Below are positions 29,156 to 58,499 of a stretch of DNA of 64,000 nucleotides, in pieces. The stretch spans positions 3,410,001 to 3,474,000 of the forward strand of contig CM035358.1 of the NCBI GenBank assembly GCA_020137815.1, written 5' to 3'. Under the pieces are notes generated by a model that saw nothing but the letters and a program-made list of their open reading frames with translations, was not told the DNA's origin and made no database searches. The stretch's first letter is position 1; every line of letters begins with the position of its first letter. This stretch comes from Hormiphora californensis (taxonomy: Eukaryota > Animalia > Ctenophora). The position numbers and the translations under genes are program-made.

Positions 29156-30001
29156 TTATTCATCTGTAAACTCTGGTTTCCTTTTCCCAACGAATGCTCC
29201 CATTCCTTCCTTCTGGTCCTTGGTCGAGAAGGTAGCGTAGAACAACCTCTTTTCATAATCCAAACCCTGCTGAAGGGTCGTCTCATACGCGGCATTAACA
29301 GCCTCTTTGTTTAGAGCAACTGCAATCTTTGAGAAGTTGGCAATCTTTTGTCCCGCTTCGATCGATTTAGCGACTAGCTCGTCAGCAGGATAAACCTGTG
29401 CTACAAGTCCAATTTGTTTTGCTTCCTCTGCACCGATGAAGTTTCCTGTCAGGCACATTTCCATTGCTTTACTCTTTCCAACAGAGCGGGTTAGACGTTG
29501 AGTACCTCCTGCTCCGGGGATGACTCCTAGAGTAATCTCTGGCTGACCAAACTTGGCACGATCACCAGCGTAGATGAAATCACAGATCATCGCCAGCTCA
29601 CAACCTCCACCGAGAGCAAAACCATTTACAGCAGCGATTATCGGTTTCTTGTTTTTCGTTACCATTTCCAAGTCATTGAAAAGTCCGGTCATGTAAGTGT
29701 CAGCGAATGACAATGGCTCCATCATTTTGATATCTGCTCCAGCTGCAAAGGCCTTGTTTGACCCCGTAAGAACAAGACATCCAATATCTTTATCAGCGTT
29801 AGCATCTTTAACAGCAGCATTAAGATCTTCGATCACTTGGAGGTTGATTGAGTTGAGTGCCCTAGGCCTGTTGAGCTTCAGAAGTGCAACTTTATCATGT
29901 TTTTCCACCAGAACGGTTTCGTAGGCAGCCGGATCACAGTTAAGAAGTCTAGCAGCTGTTGGGAACAGCAGGGAACGCTTGGCAAGCACTGACCGGATCA
30001 T
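29156..30001 (-). CDS. ECHS1: Mitochondrial short-chain enoyl-CoA hydratase (intronless)
   Basis: 281-aa ORF with AFAAGADIK, PIIAAVNGFALGGGCELAMICD, KFGQPEITLGVIPGAGGTQRL and an N-terminal presequence-like segment. Confidence 0.95.
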   Translation of the reverse strand: MIRSVLAKRSLLFPTAARLLNCDPAAYETVLVEKHDKVALLKLNRPRALNSINLQVIEDLNAAVKDANADKDIGCLVLTGSNKAFAAGADIKMMEPLSFADTYMTGLFNDLEMVTKNKKPIIAAVNGFALGGGCELAMICDFIYAGDRAKFGQPEITLGVIPGAGGTQRLTRSVGKSKAMEMCLTGNFIGAEEAKQIGLVAQVYPADELVAKSIEAGQKIANFSKIAVALNKEAVNAAYETTLQQGLDYEKRLFYATFSTKDQKEGMGAFVGKRKPEFTDE

Positions 30002-30168
30002 GTTTCTAAAACGGGAGAGATTTAAAAATTTAAAAACTGAAAAGCTGTTCCAGTTTTATTGAACTATTGGCATACGTTGCAGGCCCCTTATAATATAATG
30101 CGCGCATGAGGGGGCTGCAGCGCATTCCAAATTGAACTACTGAACTGTAGCATGCACATGATAACTTC

Positions 30169-35474: not shown

Positions 35475-37678
35475 AAAATTTTTTCTGTAAATTTTTTCCC
35501 CACCCGGATGATCGTTTTAGCACGTGTGCTAAAAAGATCATAAAGGGTTTAGAAATCTCGGATTTGAAATAGTAACTCGAGCGTGGTCAAAATCGCGTGT
35601 GTCACGGTAGCAGCCTGACAACCGCGATGCTGACAATTTTGAAAAGTTCGTCCGCAAAGTTATTTCACTACGGATTGTGGTGGCGTGCGCTCAAAATTTG
35701 CTGCGCGCGGCGCTCTCAATGCAGCGTTGTTGGTCTCACACCTCGTGCGTTACAGCATGGCGCCGCTACTAGCGCTCGAATGGATTTAACTTCTTAATCA
35801 ATCTGATCGAAACTAAAACTAAAAGCTCAGCTCGTTAGTATGGTGACTGACGGAACGTGAGAAGTTCCCATGCATAGCTTAGTGTCACATAACATTGTAA
35901 TTAGGCGTTGGCGTCGCGACGATCAGATCACATTGCACGGTATCATCTAGTGTGGGCGGCGCTCAGAGATCTCATCGCAGATCGCTTATCAGTGAATGTG
36001 ATCGGTTTGAGTATTCGTTGGCAGGGAAACACAGCATTATGAAACATAATGCAATAATAATTCTTGTTTGGTTTTGTTCCCAGAAAACAGCCTAACACGG
36101 TGTCCATGAAGGAGGTTTTACCTCGCCTAGAGTGACCCGAGAAGTTACGGACCCTACCCCACGTATTTGTCTGAGCTTCATTTTCATGTACGAAAATGTG
36201 TAGTTTTCCGAAATCTTACCTGGATTAGGGTTTGTTGAAGTAGGGATATTTCCGAAATCCACTGTACCAGTTTTTCGGCTGTAATTTTTGAACGCCTGCA
36301 TGAAATCAAAATTCGTAAAAACCAGGTTGTTCGCCTTGAGAAGACGCAACTTTTGGTGTATACTAACTCTTATTTTGATCCACAACTGTGGTCACAGGAG
36401 CCAAAAACGTGTTTGCAGAGTAGACATCTTTAAGGGGCCACAGTAAAGAGAGTTTTCGACCAAATCACACAAACCCATGACCAATCTGTAGCAAATTGAT
36501 TATATTTTATTGGTAAAAATTCTCAAGACCGCATAGTCGGATTTTAAATAACTGTCGTTTTTTGTCTCATATAAGACGGTCCTCTCCGGCCTCCGCACCG
36601 AGCCTTCGGCCCAGTGCGGCTACGTGAGGCGTACCCCTTGTCTACTTGTTTCTGAGTCGCGACGCGCAAACCAAGTGCTATCGCGCGCCAACTCTTCTCT
36701 CTCGTTAGCCTAAATGCGTCTCTCACTTTTCCCACGCACCGTGGGAAAGTCGCGTGAAGCTTTTTTTACAAGAACAAGTGTTGAAAATGTGTAAACCGCG
36801 CCGCGTGTTGATCTTTGCGCGTTCTAAAGCTGTGTTTGGGGTCTGACTGTGCATCGAGGTTGCGCGATGTACAGTCAGTGTCTGACAACGTTTTTTAGAG
36901 TTTTCAAATTTCTTTAAATGATCCTTTTGGATTTTGACCACTTAAGCAATTTTTAGGCATATACGTCCGACCACTTAATCCTTTTAAAAGGGCAAGTCTC
37001 TATCTCTTTTAGTTTTAGAGATATAATGGCATCGTGAAAAAAGCAATAAGTGTCCCGGGTCTATCTATGTACTAGTATCTACCTATGTATGTTTTGACGA
37101 TTGCGAAAGCATGAAACTTTGAGTAAACGATTATTAAATCTTAATAATATTCAACCCTTTTTTTTAGATTAAATGAAATAAACTTCGGTCGCGACATGTT
37201 ATCATAGTAATAGTCGTCAAGGTCTTCAAGATCATGTTGAAAGCTGTAAATAAGAAGCGGGGGCGCCTCTCGTTGGAAGTTATTGAGGTCTTTCAGAAAT
37301 TTTCCGGTTACTCGATCACATCCGACAATTTTCAGGGTTTCAAGGTTCTCCAGAGCATTTATTACTGCAGCAACCTCTTCGTCCGTGATATTGGTGAATT
37401 CTAAGGACAATGTCACGAGGGAGAAACACTTTGTTAACCAATGATACCCACTAGCCCGATCTGCCGGTACATATCTATCTGCTTTAAGGGTTCGCAGTTT
37501 TTGTAGATTTTGTACCTTTCCGAGTTCCGAGCATACCATACGCATGCCTGGTAAAGTGAGAGAAATCAGGTTCGGGCACGTTTCAATAACTGTAGAGATA
37601 CATTGATCAGCGGCATTGAGCGACTCACGAGGAAAGTCAGAGTCTATATGGAGGTACTCCAAATTTGGCATCGATTCC

Positions 37679-37721
37679 AGTTTCAAACTTTTCAACACTA
37701 CTTTAAACAAATTAATTTGAG
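37679..37721 (+). other. Spliced-leader-like 43-mer at the 5' end of LINE A
   Basis: AGTTTCAAACTTTTCAACACTACTTTAAACAAATTAATTTGAG. It is not needed by the host ORF (removing it restores regular LRR spacing), ends in TTTGAG 2 nt before the ORF1 ATG, and matches my recollection of the ctenophore SL exon (not database-verified). Confidence 0.8.
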
Positions 37722-37723
37722 CT

Positions 37724-39016
37724 ATGTCCGATGATGCAGGAATAGTGGAGACAGTGTTGGCGAACTTGAGGACAGCGGCTGGTGCCAAGGGTGCGAAAGC
37801 TGTCGAAGTTTACGAGTTTGAGGATAGCCACGAGGAAAACGTTAGCCGGATGAAAGTTAAAACTAACGATGAACTGAAACCGGTATGTAAGGTTCTGGGA
37901 GTACCGCTAGTGGGACGGGACGGGAAATCTCGAGACAAGCGAGAGCTGGCGGACAAGATAGTTCTCCAGATAGAAACGTTGTTTCCCATTGACTGTCAAG
38001 ACTGCGGTGAAAAATACAGGATCGAACTTGGGAAAAAACCCATATTGAGGTGCTTTCTGTGTGGGCAAGGGGCACACGCATGTAAGTTCTCAGTAGAGGG
38101 AAGCAGGCTTGGGTCTGTATGGTTATGCTTTTGCTGCTGGAAGAAAAATGAGGAAAATACTGACAGGGAGGAGCAGAACCAAGACCCGAATGAGACGGAG
38201 GATGAGAAGACAGTCGGCACCGAGAAGGATGGTGACGAGAAGGTCGACGCTGACGACAACAAGGCGGCAGAGAAAAAAGAAGATACGAGGAAGAAAGGTA
38301 CAGAGGATGGGGACAAAACATTGGAAATTAACTCCGGAAATGTATGCAGTTACTTTCTGAACAAAAATTGCAGACACGGCAGAAAAGGAGATCAGTTGGT
38401 GAACGGAAAATCATGCCCAAAACTTCACCCGGTACTTTGCAAGAGATTCTGCAACTATGGAGGTTCCAAACGTTATGGCTGCATCAAGGGAGTGCAGTGC
38501 AAGTTTCATCATCCACCCCTGTGTAAGGGTTCCGATGCAAGAAGAGCGTGCTACGACAACCAGTGTAGAATGACACACCTATTGCACACTAGTAGGACGA
38601 GAGAGGAACCCCAGAACCCCTGGAAACCAGAAGGGTCAAAGCGGACAACGGCATGGAAACCCTCTGCTCAGGTAGGAGACACAGCAGACACGGCGTTTAG
38701 AGCTAAGCGGCAGAGGAAAATGCCGGAGACAGAAAAAGTTGGAGGACCAGTAACTAAGGAGTTTCTCCTGGAGACACTGGAAAAGATAAATGCCGAACCT
38801 CGTAAAGAGAAACCAGAAGTGAAGAGGGAAGAGCCCCTAACAAAGGATTTTTTACTGAAAGCACTGGAGGTCATGAAGGCAGAAATACAGCAATCGGTGG
38901 TCCTACAGTTACTGGAGTTCAAGACTCAGGTGGTGGATCCGCTAGGGGGAGGAAATATGAAAACAACTTGGGGAACAGCAGGAATACACCCCATACTTCA
39001 AAGTTTCACCTCCTAA
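37724..39016 (+). CDS. LINE A ORF1 (PHD-like finger + three CCCH-type zinc fingers)
   Basis: 430 aa; CQDC..CFLCGQGAHAC..WLCFCC; CSYFLNKNCRHG, CKRFC..GCIKGVQCKFHHP, CKGS..CYDNQCRMTH. Confidence 0.88.
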   Translation: MSDDAGIVETVLANLRTAAGAKGAKAVEVYEFEDSHEENVSRMKVKTNDELKPVCKVLGVPLVGRDGKSRDKRELADKIVLQIETLFPIDCQDCGEKYRIELGKKPILRCFLCGQGAHACKFSVEGSRLGSVWLCFCCWKKNEENTDREEQNQDPNETEDEKTVGTEKDGDEKVDADDNKAAEKKEDTRKKGTEDGDKTLEINSGNVCSYFLNKNCRHGRKGDQLVNGKSCPKLHPVLCKRFCNYGGSKRYGCIKGVQCKFHHPPLCKGSDARRACYDNQCRMTHLLHTSRTREEPQNPWKPEGSKRTTAWKPSAQVGDTADTAFRAKRQRKMPETEKVGGPVTKEFLLETLEKINAEPRKEKPEVKREEPLTKDFLLKALEVMKAEIQQSVVLQLLEFKTQVVDPLGGGNMKTTWGTAGIHPILQSFTS

Positions 39017-41952
39017 ATGCCAGGAGTTTTTGTCCATCCGCGGAGACTACCTGGAAACTTGAGGTGGTACGAGACATGGTGGACGACGAGACCACTCCTG
39101 TGGCTTTCCTGGGCATAACGGAAACCTGGTGGAGAGGGTATATGGCGGAGGCCCAGCTGAAGATTTCCGGATATAACCTGGTGAGATGCGATAGGCAGGG
39201 CAGGATAGGAGGAGGATGTGCCCTGTATGTCCACTCTAGCCTCGCTATATCAGATCAAGTGGAGTATTCGGACACAAGTAACAACCTGGCAGCCGTCTAC
39301 ATGGGCAACACCCACTCAATAGTGGCAGTTATATATCGAGCTGGTACAGATGCAACAGCTTTTCAGAGACTGGTGAAAAAACTGCAGACGTTTATTGATA
39401 CTCATAGCCGGGAAAAAACAGTTCCGGACCTGTGGTTGATGGGTGATTTTAATCTCCCACTCCTGAAATGGAGAGGAGGGTTGTATGAAACTATTGACCA
39501 TCCCTTGTACAATATTATGGGTAACTTGGTAGACGATAATTCTCTCAGCCAAATGGTCAGTTTTCCTACCAGAGGAGAGAACGTCTTAGATCTGGTGCTA
39601 ACCAACCGTCCCGACTATGTCCTTTCAACTAGGGGTGAGGACCTCGGGATTTCTGATCATGAGATGGTTACATGTACCCTGACCTACAATTGCACGGCGA
39701 AGCCCCCCAGGGACGATCGTGTTATGTCAGACTTTGCGGAACTTAATCTCTTAAAAGCTGACTTTGATAGGCTAAACTCTGCCTTTGACGAGGTGGACTG
39801 GGATCAGCTTCAACTACTGTGTACAGAAATGGAAGACCCCGATGGTAGCTTCTTAGAGGTAGTGAGACTTACGGTCCTCCAGGTCTGTAAGATCTTCACT
39901 GAGCTGAAACGTTGGAAAAGTAAACGGAAGGACAAAACACTCCGGCACCTTCGTAGCAGGAGAAGAAAGTTGAACAAGAGAATGGTAGACGCAAAAGGCA
40001 CGACGAAGCTCAAAATTGAGGAGTTGGCCGGGAAAATAACGCTCGCCGTCAAAGCTCATGTAAAAGAAAAGGAGCAGGGGGATGAAGTACGAGCTGCTTC
40101 CGCAATCAAAGTGAACCCTAAATTCTTCTACAGTCATGCTAAATCTCTATCCAAGGTCAAATCAGCGGTGGCTCCACTCCAGAGGCAGGATGGTTCGCTT
40201 ACTACGAACTCGAAGGAGAAAGCAGAACTCCTACAGAGTCAGTATGTTAGGGTGTTTAGCAACCCACTGGACGTGGACCCTGAAAAGGCAGTGGAGAACA
40301 TTGAGGAAAATGAAGCGGAAATAAGCGACATCAGCTTCACGAAGGCGGACATTGAACAGGAACTAAAGGAACTGAAACCGAATTCAGCGGCCCCTCCTGG
40401 TGACATACCGTCCATAGTCTTGAAGAACTGCCGTCGAACCTTGTCCTATCCCATCTGGATTATATGGCAGTCCTCGTTTGAATCTGGTAAAATACCACCC
40501 GTTATGAAGGAGCAGTTCATCTGCCCCATTTTCAAGAAAGGTGATCGTTCAGCACCAGGGAACTATAGACCAGTATCACTGACGTCTCATCTTTCGAAAA
40601 CCTTTGAGAGAATTATCAGGAATCATCTGACTGAGTTCCTTGAGAGGGTAGAACTACATTGTAACGGTCAACATGGGTTCAGAAAAGGGAGAAGTACAAT
40701 GACTCATCTGCTTGCGCACATTGACAGGGTTCTCAAACATCTAACGGATAACTACGAAGTTGATGTGCTATATCTGGACTTCCAGAAAGCGTTTGACCGT
40801 GTTGATACTGGGGTCCTACTGAGAAAACTACAAAAATATGGTGTACGAGGAAAGCTACTTGCCTGGATCAAGGAATTCCTAACAAATAGGAAGCAGGCAG
40901 TGCTAGTGGATGGGGAGCAGTCGCGGTGGGAGTGGGTCCTAAGTAGTGTGATCCAGGGAAGCGTGCTGGGCCCTATTTTGTTCATCTTTTACGTAATCGA
41001 CTTGAAGGAGTCTTTGTCAAGTGCTGACGCTTTGTCGTTTGCAGACGATACGAAGCTCATACAGGTAATACGGACATTGCTAGACCAGGCAGAACTCCAG
41101 AAGGACTTGGGAAATGTGAGTCAGTGGTCTCTGACTAATAATATGAGACTTCATGAGGAAAAATTTCAACTGGTAAACTACTCGCTAGGCAGATCTAAAC
41201 TCCTGAGAGAGCTGCCTTTCGCTGCAGAAACCTTATCCTATGTTACTTCGGGAGGAACTGTGGTGGAGCCAGAGCAGCATGTGAAAGACTTGGGCGTTTG
41301 GCTATCGGCGGATGGTACGTGGACTCATCACATTGGTGATATTGTGAGGAGAGCTAACATGATTGCAGGATGGATATTCTGTGCATTCAGGAGTAGATCC
41401 CGTGAGGTACTTCTAACCCTATATAAGGCGTTGGTTCGACCCATTTTGGAATACTGCTGTTTGGTGTGGTGTCCAACGAGAATCGCTGACATCCAGGCAG
41501 TAGAGAACGTCCAACGGGCATTTACCCGGAAGATCCAAGGGATGAAGGAGCTGGACTATTGGCAGCGTCTAGAGGCGCTGGATCTCATGTCCCTCCAGAG
41601 AAGACGTCAACGATATGAGATGATACACGTTTGGAAAATCTATCACGGGCTAGTACCCAACTGTGTGCAAATGGAGTTCCAGATTGGCCGGTTAGGAGTC
41701 CAGGCAAAGACACAGAAATACCCTTACTGGGCAGATTCCAAATGGGCAGGTCAGTTGTACAACTCGTTCAGCTTCAGGGCACCTCAACTATGGAACAGAC
41801 TCCCTCGAGAGGTTACTCTTTCAGGCACCCTTCCTGGGTTAAAGGCTAACTTGGGTGCATTCATGAAGCAATTCCATGACAGACCACCGGTGCGTGGCTA
41901 CACGACGGTCCCAAATGATTTCAGAGATGCAGGAAGAAAGAACGTTGTGTGA
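38968..41952 (+). CDS. LINE A ORF2 (APE endonuclease + reverse transcriptase), intact; no AUG before the endonuclease start
   Basis: LNARS, ITETW, GDFNLP, LDLVLTN, SDH (APE); NYRPVSLTS, QHGFRKGRS, LDFQKAFDRV, QGSVLGPILF, FADDTKL, KDLGV (RT). Confidence 0.95.
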   Translation: MGNSRNTPHTSKFHLLNARSFCPSAETTWKLEVVRDMVDDETTPVAFLGITETWWRGYMAEAQLKISGYNLVRCDRQGRIGGGCALYVHSSLAISDQVEYSDTSNNLAAVYMGNTHSIVAVIYRAGTDATAFQRLVKKLQTFIDTHSREKTVPDLWLMGDFNLPLLKWRGGLYETIDHPLYNIMGNLVDDNSLSQMVSFPTRGENVLDLVLTNRPDYVLSTRGEDLGISDHEMVTCTLTYNCTAKPPRDDRVMSDFAELNLLKADFDRLNSAFDEVDWDQLQLLCTEMEDPDGSFLEVVRLTVLQVCKIFTELKRWKSKRKDKTLRHLRSRRRKLNKRMVDAKGTTKLKIEELAGKITLAVKAHVKEKEQGDEVRAASAIKVNPKFFYSHAKSLSKVKSAVAPLQRQDGSLTTNSKEKAELLQSQYVRVFSNPLDVDPEKAVENIEENEAEISDISFTKADIEQELKELKPNSAAPPGDIPSIVLKNCRRTLSYPIWIIWQSSFESGKIPPVMKEQFICPIFKKGDRSAPGNYRPVSLTSHLSKTFERIIRNHLTEFLERVELHCNGQHGFRKGRSTMTHLLAHIDRVLKHLTDNYEVDVLYLDFQKAFDRVDTGVLLRKLQKYGVRGKLLAWIKEFLTNRKQAVLVDGEQSRWEWVLSSVIQGSVLGPILFIFYVIDLKESLSSADALSFADDTKLIQVIRTLLDQAELQKDLGNVSQWSLTNNMRLHEEKFQLVNYSLGRSKLLRELPFAAETLSYVTSGGTVVEPEQHVKDLGVWLSADGTWTHHIGDIVRRANMIAGWIFCAFRSRSREVLLTLYKALVRPILEYCCLVWCPTRIADIQAVENVQRAFTRKIQGMKELDYWQRLEALDLMSLQRRRQRYEMIHVWKIYHGLVPNCVQMEFQIGRLGVQAKTQKYPYWADSKWAGQLYNSFSFRAPQLWNRLPREVTLSGTLPGLKANLGAFMKQFHDRPPVRGYTTVPNDFRDAGRKNVV

Positions 41953-42408
41953 GGCTGTAAATGTTGTTTTGCTGCTCATGCTGTTTATGTTTTTATGTTA
42001 AGTAAGGGACTGTAAATAAACAATTTGACAAGGAGGACCCACGCGATGGGAATTTCATCACGTTTTATGTATTGTGTAAAAATATAATTGAACTTGAACT
42101 TGAACTTGAACTTCTTAAAAAGGAGATGATTTGAGAAATCAATCTTTAGTCTTTTCATCATAGGCATCAACGGTATGGCTGTCTGTAGAGGGACGCGTCT
42201 GATGTAATAAAAAGACACTTCCAAGTGTTCCAAAGTATTGCAGAACGATTGAAGGGTGAACACCAAACTATGTAGTGAAAACTGTATATTCGTATTCACA
42301 CCCCTCCTCAAAGGTCCCTTCATAGTTTTAAAAGATCTTAACGGATTATTTTCTAGGTAAACAGGAATGCATTGCCCATTGATCTTACAATCTGCACTCT
42401 GTATATCA

Positions 42409-45108
42409 CAAGGGGTGTTCCTGCGAATTCGGATATAGGATTGCGCCACTCTCGAAAACTCCGCGCATGCGCCCTCTGTTTCTATTTGGCGCCATAGCTC
42501 AAGAATGGCGCCACCCCGGAACTATGTGAGAACACCAAGTTCAAGAGAATTGTCTCACCTACACCCTCGAAAAAGAAATAGAGAAAACGAATGAGCCAAA
42601 GCCAAGCTACGTATCAAAATGTTTTGACTACCAAAATATGTGAGTGAAGGTGTGGTGTCTTCCAGGGGGTGTAGCTCTGGAACAAAACAAAATCTCGGAA
42701 AGTTCTTGGTAGCCGTGTGTACAAAATCGTCCTGGCTACCCATTGGCATCAAATCTAGAGCAATTTGGTCAACCATGTGAGTTTCTATAAAGCTTTTCTT
42801 GCTTGCGACGGCTTTTTGAGATTCTGGGGCGATCTCTAACTTTCACAATGCTGAAAAGATCACTTTTCATCGCGCGTTTTCGCGCGCCCTCTCCCCTTCT
42901 CTGCAGCTCAGGGGTGTTGGGAGCTAACACGTGTGTGTGTGTTGAAGATATATATCCGAACTCGCAAATTACAAAAACTACAAATAAGCGTTTATGTGTC
43001 CGATTTCAGGGGTAACTAAACGGTATTCCTAATTAGTAGCTCACATTACAGCATTCCTATGTACTTCTACCATCTACTCACATCACCCTGGCCACTCCTT
43101 TACCCAAATCAGGTCTCAGCTGTATCATATCAAACACACCCAATGTGTAATGTGTGGCTTGTGAAATATGTAATCCTATATTTCAAGTCTTTATCTCTAT
43201 CTCTATCTCTATCTCTTGCCCTCTCTTTCTATATTGCCCTTTCTCTCCAGCACTATGACTGCAGTATGCTGCAGTAGGGCCGAGTCCTGATCATCGGAAT
43301 GAAGGAGAATACAATTACACCGAGTTATTGAACAGAAAAACACCATGCACAGTTAAACCCATAAAGTTACACATAACTGGGTTATCTCTCTACCTCTCTC
43401 TTTCTCATTCTCCACATCCCTCTCTTTTTCCATCTCGGTGTGTGAGCGCTTCAGATATTTCACTAGGACAAGCGAGGGCCGAGGAAAGGAAGAAAGAAAG
43501 AAGGAGAGACCGGGCGGTTGAGTTGTGCCACTATCAGTAGGAACAGTTCTTTGTAACTGTAGTGTGTCCTCACACCAAGGTCGCCACTCTGTCTGGAGTG
43601 TCGTGTGTAAGTGTGTCATACCTGCTGCTTTCTCTCTTTCTCTCTCCCTCACTCTCTCTCCCGCTCCCTCTTCTCTCCCTCTCTTTCTGGATCCGGGCCA
43701 GGGGATTTGGGGATTTAACTCTGCTCTCGAGCCTGGGACTTTACGGCCCGATGTGGGAGTGGTGTGTGTAATGGACCGAGAAAGAGAGAGGGAGGGAGAG
43801 AGAGGGAGAGGGAGAGAGAGAAAGTGAGGGAGAGAGAAAGAGAGAAAGAGAGAAAGCAGCAGGTATGACACACTTACACACGACACTCCAGACAGAGTGG
43901 CGACCTTGGTGTGAGGACAATGGACATACTACAGTTACGAAGAACTGTTCCCACTGATAGTGGCACAACTCAACCGCCCGGTCTCTCCTTCTTTCTTTCT
44001 TCCTTTCCTCGGCCCTCGCTTGTCCTAGTGAGATATCTGAAGCGCTCACACACCGAGATGGAAAAAGAGAGGGATGTGGAGAATGAGAAAGAGAGAGGTA
44101 GAGAGATAACCGAGTGTGTAACTTTATGGGTTTAACTGTGCATGGTGTTTTTCTGTTCAATAACTCGGTGTAATTGTATTCTCCTTCATTCCGATGATCA
44201 GGACTCGGCCCTACTGCAGCATACTGCAGTCATAGTGCTGGAGAGAAAGGGCAATATAGAAAGAGAGGGCAAGAGATAGAGATAGAGATAGAGATAAAGA
44301 CTTGAAATATAGGATTACATATTTCACAAGCCACACATTACACATTGGGTGTGTTTGATATGATACAGCTGAGACCTGATTTGGGTAAAGGAGTGGCCAG
44401 GGTGATGTGAGTAGATGGTAGAAGTACATAGGAATGCTGTAATGTGAGCTACTAATTAGGAATACCGTTTAGTTACCCCTGAAATCGGACACATAAACGC
44501 TTATTTGTAGTTTTTGTAATTTGCGAGTTCGGATATATATCTTCAACACACACACACGTGTTAGCTCCCAACACCCCTGAGCTGCAGAGAAGGGGAGAGG
44601 GCGCGCGAAAACGCGCGATGAAAAGTGATCTTTTCAGCATTGTGAAAGTTAGAGATCGCCCCAGAATCTCAAAAAGCCGTCGCAAGCAAGAAAAGCTTTA
44701 TAGAAACTCACATGGTTGACCAAATTGCTCTAGATTTGATGCCAATGGGTAGCCAGGACGATTTTGTACACACGGCTACCAAGAACTTTCCGAGATTTTG
44801 TTTTGTTCCAGAGCTACACCCCCTGGAAGACACCACACCTTCACTCACATAATTTGGTAGTCAAAACATTTTGATACGTAGCTTGGCTTTGGCTCATTCG
44901 TTTTCTCTATTTCTTTTTCGAGGGTGTAGGTGAGACAATTCTCTTGAACTTGGTGTTCTCACATAGTTCCGGGGTGGCGCCATTCTTGAGCTATGGCGCC
45001 AAATAGAAACAGAGGGCGCATGCGCGGAGTTTTCGAGAGTAATAATAATAATAATTATTATTATTACTCTCGAAAATCCTATATCCGAATTCGCAGGAAC
45101 ACCCCTTG
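42409..45108. mobile_element. 2.7-kb foldback element with ~1.25-kb near-identical inverted arms and 6-bp TSD
   Basis: Termini CAAGGGGTGTTCCTGCGAATTCGGATATAGGATT at both ends; TSD ATATCA (42403-42408, 45109-45114); mirror-image ORFs in the ORF track; no transposase. Confidence 0.93.
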
Positions 45109-45463
45109 ATATCAATCTCCAGATCTTTTAATCCTTTTAAATTGGTAAGCATCAATCTTAAATTGTTTTCATCTAACCGGTATGCATGTATAGTTAACGT
45201 CTCTAGAGCTGGCGGTGTGTTGGTAAAAAAGGCTCGGATAAATTTATTTCCAAACTCGACCCCTACAAAACTAAGGTGTGTAAGATTTTTACACAGTCCA
45301 ATAGCTGTTGCAATTTCACAATTTGGTCGTGAGTATGAGAAATAGATATTTCGCAGACTCTCCCTACCTAACTGTATTACTAACATCATTGCAGCCAAAA
45401 AGGCTTTATCTCCCCCAGTACGATTGAGACTTTTTTGTAGACTGTTTCCATCGAGATGCTGAA

Positions 45464-47956
45464 GTGATTGGAGCGATGACCGAGAGATATTGTACCACCT
45501 CCTGCAAACCATCCCACAAACCAACTGTATACAATACACTCCGGGATTTCATGGACACCAACCTTCTAACGCAGTTGGTATCATCACCAACCAGGGGAGA
45601 TAATGTTCTTGATCTAGTGTTCACCAACAGGCCAGATTATGTCCTGGCGGTGAACTGCGACGACCTCGGAATATCCGACCATTCCATGGTGACATGCACT
45701 CTGGCATTCAACTGTACGGAAAGGGTGGAGAGAGACCTTCGGGAGAAAACAGGGTTTGCAGCGCTCAGCTTATTGGACATGGATTTTGAGAGGGCAAACG
45801 CGTTGTTTGAGGAGGTGGACTGGGACCTCCTGCACCTCCTCTGTTCTGAAGGTGGCAGTGATTTTTTGGAACTGATGAGGCTTACAGTTCTACAGATAAC
45901 CACTATGTGTGCCCCACCTAAACGGGTTGGCAAGAAGTGGAGAGATAAGAAGTTGAGACACCTGCGGAGCCGGCGGAGGAAACTCAACCGGCGGATGGTC
46001 AGGGCATCTGGTAAGCTGAAACAGCGGCTAGAGGAAAAGGTGGACAGAATAACGATGGACATTAAAGACCACGTGAAAGATCTACAGCAAGCTAGAGAAG
46101 AAAAAGTTGCAGCGGCGGTTAAGTTGAACCCTAAGTACTTCTTCACCCACGCCAAATCCTTCTCCAAGGTGAAGTCCTCGGTCTCTCCACTCGCGAGGGA
46201 AGATGGTTCTCTTACAACAGATTCTAGGGAAAAGGCAGACCTGCTGCAGCGGCAATACGTGAAGGTCTTCAGTAACCCAGCGGATGTGGATCCAGAGAAG
46301 GCAATCGAGAACATCCCTGAGAACAAGGTGGAAATCTTGGATATAGAGTTTTTCCAGGAGGATATTGAAAAGGCATTAAAGGAGCTTAAACCCAACTCAG
46401 CAGCCCCACCGGGAGATATTCCAGCTGTCATTCTAAAAAGCTGTTGCAGCAGATTAGCGTACCCGATTTGGCTTCTCTGGAAGGAGTCTTTCAATACAAG
46501 TACCATACCAGCAGCAATGAAAGAACAGTTTATCTGTCCAATCTTTAAGAAAGGGGATCGCTCGCTGCCTGAGAATTACCGACCGGTGGCTATCACGTCA
46601 CATATCTCCAAAACATTTGAGAGGGTGCTGCGAGACCACCTGACGAACTTCTTGGAGAGAGCAGAGCTTCATTGCGATAGGCAGCACGGCTTTCGAAAGG
46701 GGCGAAGTACGATGACTCATCTCCTCGCCCATATAGATAGAGTATTAAAACAGCTCACTGAAGGGAATGAAGTGGACGTGTTGTATCTGGACTTTCAAAA
46801 GGCGTTTGATAGAGTTGATACACGTGTCTTACTCAAAAAGCTTCATCGTTATGGTGTCCGCGGCAAACTGTTGGCTTGGATAAAGGAGTTCCTCATCAAC
46901 CGGAAGCAGACGGTACTGGTGGACGGGGAGCAATCATTCTGGGAACTCGTGGTCAGTAGTGTAATCCAGGGCAGCGTACTGGGGCCAGTCCTTTTCATAT
47001 TTTATGTACTCGACCTGAAAGAATGCCTCTCAAGTGCAGACTCGATGTCTTTTGCCGATGACACTAAGCTGATCCAGGCTATCCAGACCCTTCTTGACCA
47101 AGTGGAACTTCAAGAGGACATCAAAAATGTTAGTCAGTGGTCGTCCAATAACAACATGAGGCTTCACGAGAAGAAGTTTCAGTTAATGATATACCCCCTA
47201 GGCAAGTCCCAGTTGCTTAGGGAGCTACCTTTCACGTCTGAAACCCTGAGCTATGTTACGGAAGCAGGTACGACTGTGGAACCTGAACAGCACGTAAAGG
47301 ACCTCGGTGTATGGTTGTCGGCGGATGGTACATGGACTTATCACATCAATGACATCGTTAGGAGGGCCAACCGGATTGCGGGATGGATTCTGAGCGTGTT
47401 CAGATGTAGATCTCAGGAGGTATTACTGACTCTATACAAGGCCTTGGTTCGTCCCATTCTAGAGTACTGCTGCTTGGTTTGGTCACCGTCCAAGGTAGCT
47501 GACATCCAGGCGCTGGAGAACGTTCAGCGAGCTTTCTTAAGAAAGATCTATGGGATGAATGAGCTGACCTACTGGGAGCGGTTGGAGACTCTGAAAATCA
47601 TGTCCCTTCAGAGGCGACGCCAGAGGTACGAGCTTATACATGTCTGGAAAATCTATCATGGACTAGTACCTAACTGTGTAGGAATGGAATTCCAGACAGG
47701 CCGCTTGGGGATACAGGTCAAAACGCAGAAGTATCCTTATTGGGCTGATAGGAGGCGAGCTACCCAGCTGTTCAACTCGTTCAGTTACAGGGCTCCTCAG
47801 TTGTGGAATAAACTGCCCCGAGAGGTGACCCTTTGTGAAACATTGGCAGGGTTTAAGGCTAGCCTGGGTTCTTTCATGAAGGAGTACAAGGACAGACCTC
47901 CGGTGAGAGGGTACCCCACGGTCCCGAATGACTTCAGTCAGGCGGCGAAATCTTAG
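45464..47956 (+). CDS. LINE B truncated ORF2 (reverse transcriptase intact); first ~22 codons are antisense host sequence
   Basis: NYRPVAITS, LDFQKAFDRV, QGSVLGPVLF, FADDTKL. Confidence 0.85.
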   Translation: MIGAMTERYCTTSCKPSHKPTVYNTLRDFMDTNLLTQLVSSPTRGDNVLDLVFTNRPDYVLAVNCDDLGISDHSMVTCTLAFNCTERVERDLREKTGFAALSLLDMDFERANALFEEVDWDLLHLLCSEGGSDFLELMRLTVLQITTMCAPPKRVGKKWRDKKLRHLRSRRRKLNRRMVRASGKLKQRLEEKVDRITMDIKDHVKDLQQAREEKVAAAVKLNPKYFFTHAKSFSKVKSSVSPLAREDGSLTTDSREKADLLQRQYVKVFSNPADVDPEKAIENIPENKVEILDIEFFQEDIEKALKELKPNSAAPPGDIPAVILKSCCSRLAYPIWLLWKESFNTSTIPAAMKEQFICPIFKKGDRSLPENYRPVAITSHISKTFERVLRDHLTNFLERAELHCDRQHGFRKGRSTMTHLLAHIDRVLKQLTEGNEVDVLYLDFQKAFDRVDTRVLLKKLHRYGVRGKLLAWIKEFLINRKQTVLVDGEQSFWELVVSSVIQGSVLGPVLFIFYVLDLKECLSSADSMSFADDTKLIQAIQTLLDQVELQEDIKNVSQWSSNNNMRLHEKKFQLMIYPLGKSQLLRELPFTSETLSYVTEAGTTVEPEQHVKDLGVWLSADGTWTYHINDIVRRANRIAGWILSVFRCRSQEVLLTLYKALVRPILEYCCLVWSPSKVADIQALENVQRAFLRKIYGMNELTYWERLETLKIMSLQRRRQRYELIHVWKIYHGLVPNCVGMEFQTGRLGIQVKTQKYPYWADRRRATQLFNSFSYRAPQLWNKLPREVTLCETLAGFKASLGSFMKEYKDRPPVRGYPTVPNDFSQAAKS

Positions 47957-48138
47957 CTGTGTGTGATTTTGCTGGGTGTGATTTTGCTGTGTGTGATTTT
48001 GCTGATGACTGACCACATGACAGGGCGATTCGTTTTTAATATTTTGAGTTAAGACTTGACAAGGAGGACCCACTCGCTGGGAAATCCGCACGCGTTTAGA
48101 TTGTGTAAATTTAATTTGATTTGATTTGATTTGATTTG
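45531..48138 (+). mobile_element. LINE B: 5'-truncated CR1/L2-group retrotransposon, sister subfamily of LINE A
   Basis: Begins within the endonuclease domain (YNTLRDFMDTNLLTQLVSSPTRG); ORF open to 47956; (TTTGA)n tail; no TSD. Confidence 0.95.
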
Positions 48139-49253
48139 ATCCCCTGGATTCAAGAGTTTGAAAATTGACAAGAGGTCATCCTCAGATAACCGCTGAATGG
48201 TTGGTTCTCCCTCCCTCTCTGGGTCGGTAGACCATTCTTCGAAAACCGGCTTTGTTTCATCGTCCGCGTCGTACTCTGGCTCTGACATTTCTATAACAAG
48301 GGAGAGAAATGTTTAAAGTGAGAGCTGTTCGTAGAAAAATAATTGGACAAGATTAGTAGTATTATAAAACTTTTCGCGATGAATTGTTAGCAATGGAAGG
48401 GCGAAGGCATCCAGCCTGCTGTCTGGGTGACCCAGGTCCCAGGTTTCAACTTTGCCCCTCATGAGTCATGAGCAACATCGGAACCGGAAACGGCTCTTTC
48501 TCTGACAAATACTAAAAAAAACAACAACAAAACAAGGTAGTAGGTAGTAGGTAGAGCGAAGGCCGAAGGATAAGGCAGCTTTTTTGATTTTTCTCTTTTA
48601 AAAAATCCCGGTCTCGTTTTTGGAAACGAGCTTCAGCTTCAAAATTTTGCAAAATAAAATGACTTTTCCAAATGCGCGCGCGGCATAGTCCGCCGCGCAG
48701 ACAAAACTCTTTTTGGCTTGCGCGCTACGTTTTATGGCCTTAAGTTAATTGAAATTCGAGGACATTTGTCAAGAGTCATATTTAATATTGCTGGCAAAGT
48801 AATAATAATAATCTCAAATGAGTTTACCATTTGGTAAACATAACTATAAAACTGCTTCTGCCAGTGTCTCCGCATCGGTTTAGTTTCTAATTCTAATTCT
48901 AGTTCCAGAATAAGATAAAGAAATGTTAACTCTAACATTGGGTACTTGCACGAATAATAATAATATTGGTACAAATACAGTGTTCACGAATACCAACAGT
49001 ACTTGGCGTTACCAAGAATACACACACCTTCACTGCAGTACGTATTGAGGATCTTTACCGAATATATATGCGATCCGGATCAAGTAATAATAATATTAGC
49101 AAATGTATACCGTTGTATCAAAGTTAACAGAAGCTATTGGTCCAGCAAAAGCTCGAGTTTAATGTCAATACATAACTTGTAATTGTCCCCCTCCATCACT
49201 AATCACTATAACAGATATGATCTACACGGCCGTTCCATCACAAGATATCTGAT

Positions 49254-53452
<4,199 letters not shown>

Positions 53453-58086: not shown

Positions 58087-58499
58087 TTATGTATTTAGTT
58101 TGACAAATAACGAAATCAAGGTTAATTCAAAGAGAAGTAAATATCATGAACAATATACCGTCTACTGATGTTGAACCACGTCATAGCGATTAAATGCCCA
58201 TATATAGTCATGATTCATGAACCAAAATAACCTAAGTGACAGTTGCTTGAAGCTCCTTCTTTAGACATTTTAAAGCAAGTCATGAAAGTGTCACTGTCTC
58301 TCAAATTAATTTTTTAGATCGCAATAAATCAATGTAGTAAATGGCAATCTGTTCTACAGAATACATCTGAATTCTGTACATTAAACACACCCTAATTTAT
58401 TTTCTAAAACATTTATTTGCTCTCCCTAAACATAATGTCTACCAAGGTCGACTTTTTAGTATTTATCCAAAAGTTTATGACTCCAAAATAGTCCACTCA

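Follow-up and report, generated by a model that had tools for sequence, protein, structure and literature searches.

How does the spliced leader (SL) of a host come to stand at the head of a retrotransposon in genomic DNA? This question is raised by LINE A, an intact long interspersed nuclear element (LINE) whose two open reading frames, ORF1 and ORF2, are both open, and which lies in a 64,000-nucleotide stretch of the ctenophore Hormiphora californensis (assembly GCA_020137815.1, contig CM035358.1, positions 3,410,001 to 3,474,000), hereafter the window. The identity of its first 43 bases with the SL, the existence of an SL-free empty form of its target and the presence of a native CAG exactly at the SL junction in other family copies suggest that LINE A most likely arose by retrotransposition of a LINE mRNA that had been trans-spliced. 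We consider it very probable that this is so and that the splice acceptor was the element's own. An earlier interpretation of the DNA by itself (the sequence-only reading) had also proposed trans-splicing followed by reverse transcription, as part of a promoter-less life cycle; the evidence presented here bears differently on these two proposals.

The spliced leader exon and the empty target

Host sequence extends up to 37678, after which a 43-mer leads through CT to the ATG of ORF1 at 37724. The parts of the copy are as follows:

37679..37721, + strand: complete 43-nt ctenophore SL exon forming the 5' end of the LINE copy; AGT at 37679-37681 is common to the empty target
37720..37726, + strand: junction AG, 2-nt untranslated region (UTR) and ORF1 ATG; the same AG ends the native pyrimidine-rich leader in most family copies (YAG, acceptor-like)
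37724..39016, + strand: ORF1 (430 aa), in which a PHD-like Cys cluster and three CCCH-like fingers were named by eye
38806..41952, + strand: ORF2, 1048 aa from stop to stop, APE endonuclease and reverse transcriptase (RT), in the -1 frame relative to ORF1
42025..42042, + strand: 18-nt 3' UTR motif, identical in LINE A and in its relative LINE B
42090..42113, + strand: (GAACTT)4 tail, its last 5 bases (42109-42113) common to the target; no target-site duplication

The sequence-only reading had recognized the 43-mer as the ctenophore SL, and this identification is now secure. All 43 of its 43 bases equal bases 2-44 of the 44-nt H. californensis leader printed in PMC8527503, whose relevant passage states that the leader is carried by 56% of Iso-Seq reads. 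The 43-mer is also the entire exon of an SL RNA gene in a metagenome contig, L022, made up of a 778-bp tandem unit of 5S rRNA and a ctenophore-type SL RNA gene (array pieces at 263-381, 693-800, 1041-1159 and 1471-1580). In that gene a C stands directly before the exon and a GTAAG donor directly after it. The leading G of the published leader is not encoded there, the exon beginning at A; hence the window would hold the complete exon, provided that transcription starts at that A. Unlike the L022 gene, the window copy has no GT donor after the exon. A 29-nt SL core is found a single time in the window and in none of 100 shuffles. A 13-nt SL-like match at 58300-58312 was dropped, the 6 such matches being compatible with the chance mean of 3.77, a search of viral_contigs with the SL pattern gave 0 matches, and Rfam over 36500-48500 gave 9 matches, all under gathering scores and 0 at the SL.

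Scanning metagenome contigs from eight datasets with the 29-nt core yielded 34 loci, 23 of which are host-like ORFs with the SL no more than 7 nt from the contig end (21 with a Pfam match at E 0.01). In these mRNA-like contigs the first ATG lies 2 nt after the SL in 5 of the 23 and within 9 nt in 14. The SL adjoins adapter in RNA run X13 and then runs into unrelated sequences. Both results bear out the expectation that the 43-mer is found at mRNA 5' ends. Two of the mRNA-like contigs (L009 and L010) carry a second, ribosomal protein-like ORF (labelled by eye), which may reflect an assembly chimera or a dicistronic RNA.

LINE A lies antisense within an intronless ORF resembling F-box/leucine-rich repeat (LRR) genes (minus strand, 37141-48288). 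This host gene holds three separate insertions, two LINEs and one DNA element, within ~1 kb of its sequence, and their removal leaves a stop-free host frame of ~470 codons:

37141..37681, - strand: host F-box/LRR gene, C-terminal piece (LRR_4, E 1.4e-5, under the Pfam cut-off)
42109..42408, - strand: host gene, middle piece
42409..45108, no strand assigned: foldback-type DNA element with near-identical inverted arms of ~1.3 kb, the second insertion in the host gene
45115..45527, - strand: host gene piece containing the last part of the F-box (weak F-box_5 match, E 0.024)
45528..48138, + strand: LINE B, a 5'-truncated relative without SL and the third insertion, ends approximate; its ORF2 is 71% identical to that of LINE A
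48139..48288, - strand: host gene, N-terminal piece, its ATG also preceded by YAG and 2 nt

The foldback element has CAAGGGG termini and is flanked by a 6-bp duplication, ATATCA (42403-42408 and 45109-45114); a weak match to it was observed at L022 1891-1944. Elsewhere in the window there are an intronless enoyl-CoA-hydratase-like ORF at 29156-30055 and an actin-like ORF at 49848-50969 (translations judged by eye), and a tandem array of a 33-nt repeat at 1985-2851 gives long repetitive open frames on both strands.

Frame restoration alone permits 56 breakpoint pairs for the insertion of LINE A. An SL-free empty form, in which 37681 is followed directly by 42109, was found in runs X2 (depth 54.5, 7 differences per side) and X6 (depth 52, with a short side of 30 letters). 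This joint indicates a blunt insertion in which element and target have AGT in common at the 5' end and 5 bases in common at the tail. It follows that the host reads KKLLES and not KKLES: the empty target reconstructed in the sequence-only reading was right in lacking the SL and one codon too short at the joint. As the empty form lacks the SL, the SL was not part of the target. These data bear on the proposal that the SL belongs to the target, as an SL gene, a relic or a chance host sequence, or that the junction is an assembly chimera. In its favour, the genomic SL copies reported run to hundreds (718 in H. californensis and 491 in Mnemiopsis leidyi, in a passage of PMC8527503 that does not state their nature), and no listed contig bridges the host-SL and SL-ORF1 junctions of the window. 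However, the empty form without SL, the continuity of the host ORF once the three insertions are taken out, the missing GT donor and the recurrence of the same layout in independent datasets all argue against this proposal, which we regard as highly improbable.

The native leader of the family and the SL junction

Contigs over 37700-37880 were examined in four runs (X2, X6, X8 and X12). The dominant contig leading into ORF1 in X2, X6 and X8 carries a pyrimidine-rich leader, with TTTGC before the AG at 37720-37721, so that the native leader ends in an acceptor-like CAG exactly at the SL junction. X12 gave no contigs over the ORF1 start, which is not proof of absence. The native-leader contig has a depth of 551.9 in X2, where the two ORF1 subfamily contigs that it leads into have depths of 436.3 and 247 (~81%), of ~3591 in X6 (from the bin mean) and of 671.5 in X8. 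X8 bears another organism label; its 20 leader bases are identical, and the next 106 nt differ at 18 positions. The leader, which in most copies is 24 nt or longer, is common to two ORF1 subfamilies and conserved across two organism labels. Its dominance in all three runs covering the ORF1 start implies that the family keeps its own 5' end and that SL-capped copies are a minority. Hence, the statement that the element has no 5' UTR of its own holds for the LINE A copy and fails for the family, and the check proposed in the sequence-only reading, for copies in which an outron-like sequence runs up to a YAG in front of CTATG, gives a positive answer.

These observations count against a promoter-less cycle, in which the family would have no 5' end of its own and read-through RNA would be re-capped at the terminal AG of the integrated SL. 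Such a cycle could explain why both ORFs of LINE A are intact with only the SL and 2 nt upstream of the ATG, and SL-capped elements are common among genomic-looking loci, the comparison with a native 5' end having covered the window family only. However, full-length copies do not all start with the SL, as the ~81% share of ORF1-start depth in X2 passes through the native leader, and native-leader contigs dominate three runs, two subfamilies and two organism labels. LINE A is also antisense to its host gene, and a search for tandem SL-SL arrangements, which the sequence-only reading had proposed to look for, gave no clear case in 11 element 5' ends. The best second-SL match among these 11 is an AT-rich flank upstream of the SL in L016 (positions 1-53, score 23), a relic or a chance match. 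We therefore consider a promoter-less cycle improbable for this family.

The preferred explanation, a retrotransposed trans-spliced mRNA, would involve the following steps. Transcription would start within the native leader or upstream of it, the leader acting as an outron. The spliceosome would exchange this leader for the SL two bases before the ORF1 ATG, as on host mRNAs. The ORF2 protein would prime at the 3' tail through the 5-nt target match, making no duplication, and copying would proceed to within 0-3 nt of the cap, with joining through the 3-nt match. Two RNA templates would then be in use: unspliced RNA would give rise to native-leader copies that sustain the family, while trans-spliced mRNA would give rise to SL-capped copies without a native leader, probably dead ends barring read-through from a host promoter.

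A different route to the same product is a template switch, in which RT working on unspliced LINE RNA jumps to an SL-bearing RNA where leader and SL are similar. U6-L1 chimeras are a precedent for such switches. The end of the native leader does resemble the 3' end of the SL: in a post hoc comparison an equal score was obtained in 21 of 1831 YAG contexts, 8 of 601 pyrimidine-rich contexts and 0 of 3000 shuffles, so that ~99% of the YAG contexts in the window align less well with the SL end than the leader end does. It is possible that this likeness is an ancient SL relic, that it reflects a shared acceptor preference or that it is due to chance. SL-capped RNAs as potential partners are plentiful, as the Iso-Seq share given in part of PMC8527503 indicates. 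Against a switch, the junction falls exactly at both AGs, the SL intron is present in 0 of 10 other elements and three families ~60% alike in ORF1 share a homologous SL junction base. Trans-splicing of transposable element (TE) RNA, moreover, has a precedent in Hydra, where ~30% of TE Iso-Seq reads carry an SL according to the portion of PMC12220107 available to us. We accordingly assign little probability to a template switch.

Several points nevertheless weigh against a retrotransposed trans-spliced mRNA. The resemblance between the leader end and the SL end leaves room for template switching guided by microhomology. No contigs or reads spanning the SL into the window ORF1 were present in the DNA runs examined, although contigs drop rare variants and this negative is no disproof, and the SL-ORF1 junction was not found in X13, the only RNA run examined and one of low depth, in which SL and LINE fragments are separate. 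The native leader was seen over 20-24 nt, so that a promoter within it is putative, and contig depth is a rough guide to copy share only. The empty form in X2, with its 7 differences per side, may be a paralogue. It is also the case that the 29-nt search pattern misses junctions inside the SL exon and SL remnants shorter than 29 nt.

Spliced leaders on other retroelements

The SL-headed layout is not confined to LINE A. Seven of the 34 metagenome loci (L003, L007, L008, L015, L020, L021 and L034) consist of an SL, a short UTR, ORF1 and an overlapping ORF2 bearing an APE domain; ORF2 is visible as far as the APE, with the RT lying beyond the contig ends. ORF1 of L020 is 29% identical to that of the window, and the other six have a different ORF1 type. 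Three further loci (L016, L031 and L032) contain ORF1-like frames with no ORF2 in view and are weakly labelled as elements; Atlas matches of L032 are to unnamed clusters whose commonest phylum, where known, is Ctenophora. A search by alignment for relatives of the window ORF1 in metagenome_contigs confirmed 0 among 284 pattern matches.

Of these ten elements, 8 keep between 40 and 43 SL bases (P ~7e-4 against an even spread over 29-43), and in none does the SL intron follow, the longest match to it being 2 bases. L003, L008 and L034, whose ORF1 sequences are 59-61% identical, have the SL joined at a homologous base. A flank of 17-461 nt precedes the SL in 7 of the 10, and no flank similarity was detected among nine elements, L022 and the window (L031, with a 1-nt flank, was left out). 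DNA run X2 contains 13 contigs with unlike flanks directly before the SL start. Two datasets that are DNA-like by content account for 10 loci, namely 9 elements, 1 SL array and 0 host genes, and the other six datasets for the 23 host genes and L020. A few local features were also noted: a hairpin-like GCCC-N4-GGGC motif between SL and ATG in L016, L031 and L032, TTTYAG directly after the SL in L016, L020 and L032, and a TAA-type repeat at the end of L032, after the stop.

Our results raise a broader proposition: that in ctenophores trans-splicing followed by copying to the cap is routine for the mRNAs of retroelements with several unrelated types of ORF1; that most unexplained genomic SLs are retroelement 5' ends; that in some lineages the SL has permanently replaced the native 5' end, giving promoter-free LINEs re-capped at the AG of the integrated SL; and that the SL-like end of the native leader is a relic of an earlier round. 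Taken as a whole, this proposition is conceivable and, in our view, rather doubtful.

The two-ORF elements share a further property. The window ORF1/ORF2 overlap, 211 nt long, includes the following site:

38848..38854, + strand: slippery heptamer U UUU UUA in the ORF1 frame

In each of the eight two-ORF elements (the window element and the seven loci), ORF2 lies in the -1 frame and the overlap contains a slippery heptamer; the eight represent only two independent lineages. Slippery heptamers number 8 in 294 codon positions of the overlaps versus 3 in 3162 outside, and in 6 of the 8 elements, including the window element, the part of ORF2 that precedes the first APE motif contains no Met. The sequence behind the A AAA AAY sites shows no conserved stimulatory structure, with a consensus energy of -1.89 kcal/mol. 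These sequence patterns suggest that ORF2 is likely expressed by a programmed -1 frameshift, for which the sites are candidates; the part of PMC5009743 available describes no -1 frameshift for such LINEs.

Significance and comparison with known systems

The two forms of this family would provide a DNA record of the RNA that a LINE copies: both the precursor before splicing and the mature mRNA after trans-splicing, the second being copied nearly to the cap. Trans-splicing would strip the element of its 5' leader, and the host pathway may supply a cap for translation and divert progeny into promoter-less copies. As the SL marks each copy derived from spliced RNA, the balance of the two copy types can be counted genome-wide. 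Our results also offer a testable explanation for the hundreds of unexplained genomic SL copies in ctenophores, and suggest that SL-gene counts and the mapping of first exons with long reads may be inflated by retroelement heads in these animals.

LINE A likely belongs to the CR1 group, a placement made on general structural features; the 60 homologues collected include no named reference RT. CR1-group elements have a short tandem-repeat tail, no target duplication and a conserved 3' stem-loop. The (GAACTT)4 tail, the blunt insertion and the 5-nt 3' match to the target fit the tail and no-duplication features; folding z-scores at the shared 3' motif region are 0.41 and -0.15. Pfam searches of ORF2 detected RVT_1 (E 3.4e-25) and Exo_endo_phos_2 (E 2.5e-6), and the closest solved structures are those of L1 ORF2p. 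ORF1 gave nothing above the cut-off in Pfam, with an Atlas lead to zf-CCCH at 0.88. LINE A thus resembles CR1-group LINEs, going by the general description above, in having two ORFs, APE and RT, a short-repeat tail, a 3' target match and no target duplication, and differs in the CCCH-like fingers of ORF1 and in the SL 5' end present on some copies. The CR1 group is named in the section of PMC4640811 consulted.

The same section describes NeSL and CRE/SLACS elements, whose endonuclease is restriction-like and whose insertion targets are SL genes. These are also non-LTR elements adjoining an SL exon. In contrast, LINE A encodes an APE endonuclease, lies within a protein-coding gene and supplies the SL itself; the view that it is not an SL-gene-targeting element is upheld by its endonuclease and by a target, the F-box/LRR ORF, that has no SL.

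TE RNAs are known to enter the host SL trans-splicing pathway in other animals, as in the Hydra reads mentioned above and in Heterodera glycines, for which a part of PMC6362198 reports SL-bearing TE transcripts and names a LINE/CR1 repeat. Those accounts, as far as the portions available extend, concern RNA only, whereas the spliced product is here fixed in DNA and a donor form with an acceptor-like end exists in the same family. In the literature searched, including part of PMC7986045, we met no account of SL-capped LINE copies in the genome of any animal; most subscription papers and Repbase notes were outside our reach.

SL-tagged retrogenes of dinoflagellates were reportedly described by Slamovits and Keeling in 2008. 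SL-tagged retroposition in dinoflagellates is also treated in the available portions of Song et al. 2017 (PMC5585692), PMC12014239 and PMC3942190. As in LINE A, a trans-spliced mRNA is copied into the genome and the SL serves as a genomic 5' tag. Unlike in these retrogenes, the cargo here is the LINE, an autonomous element of an animal, its SL is complete and present only once, and 0 of the 10 SL loci in the two DNA-like datasets were host retrogenes. SL-tagged retroposition is therefore already known; the present case contributes a view of the parent form, acceptor-like end included, next to the spliced copy.

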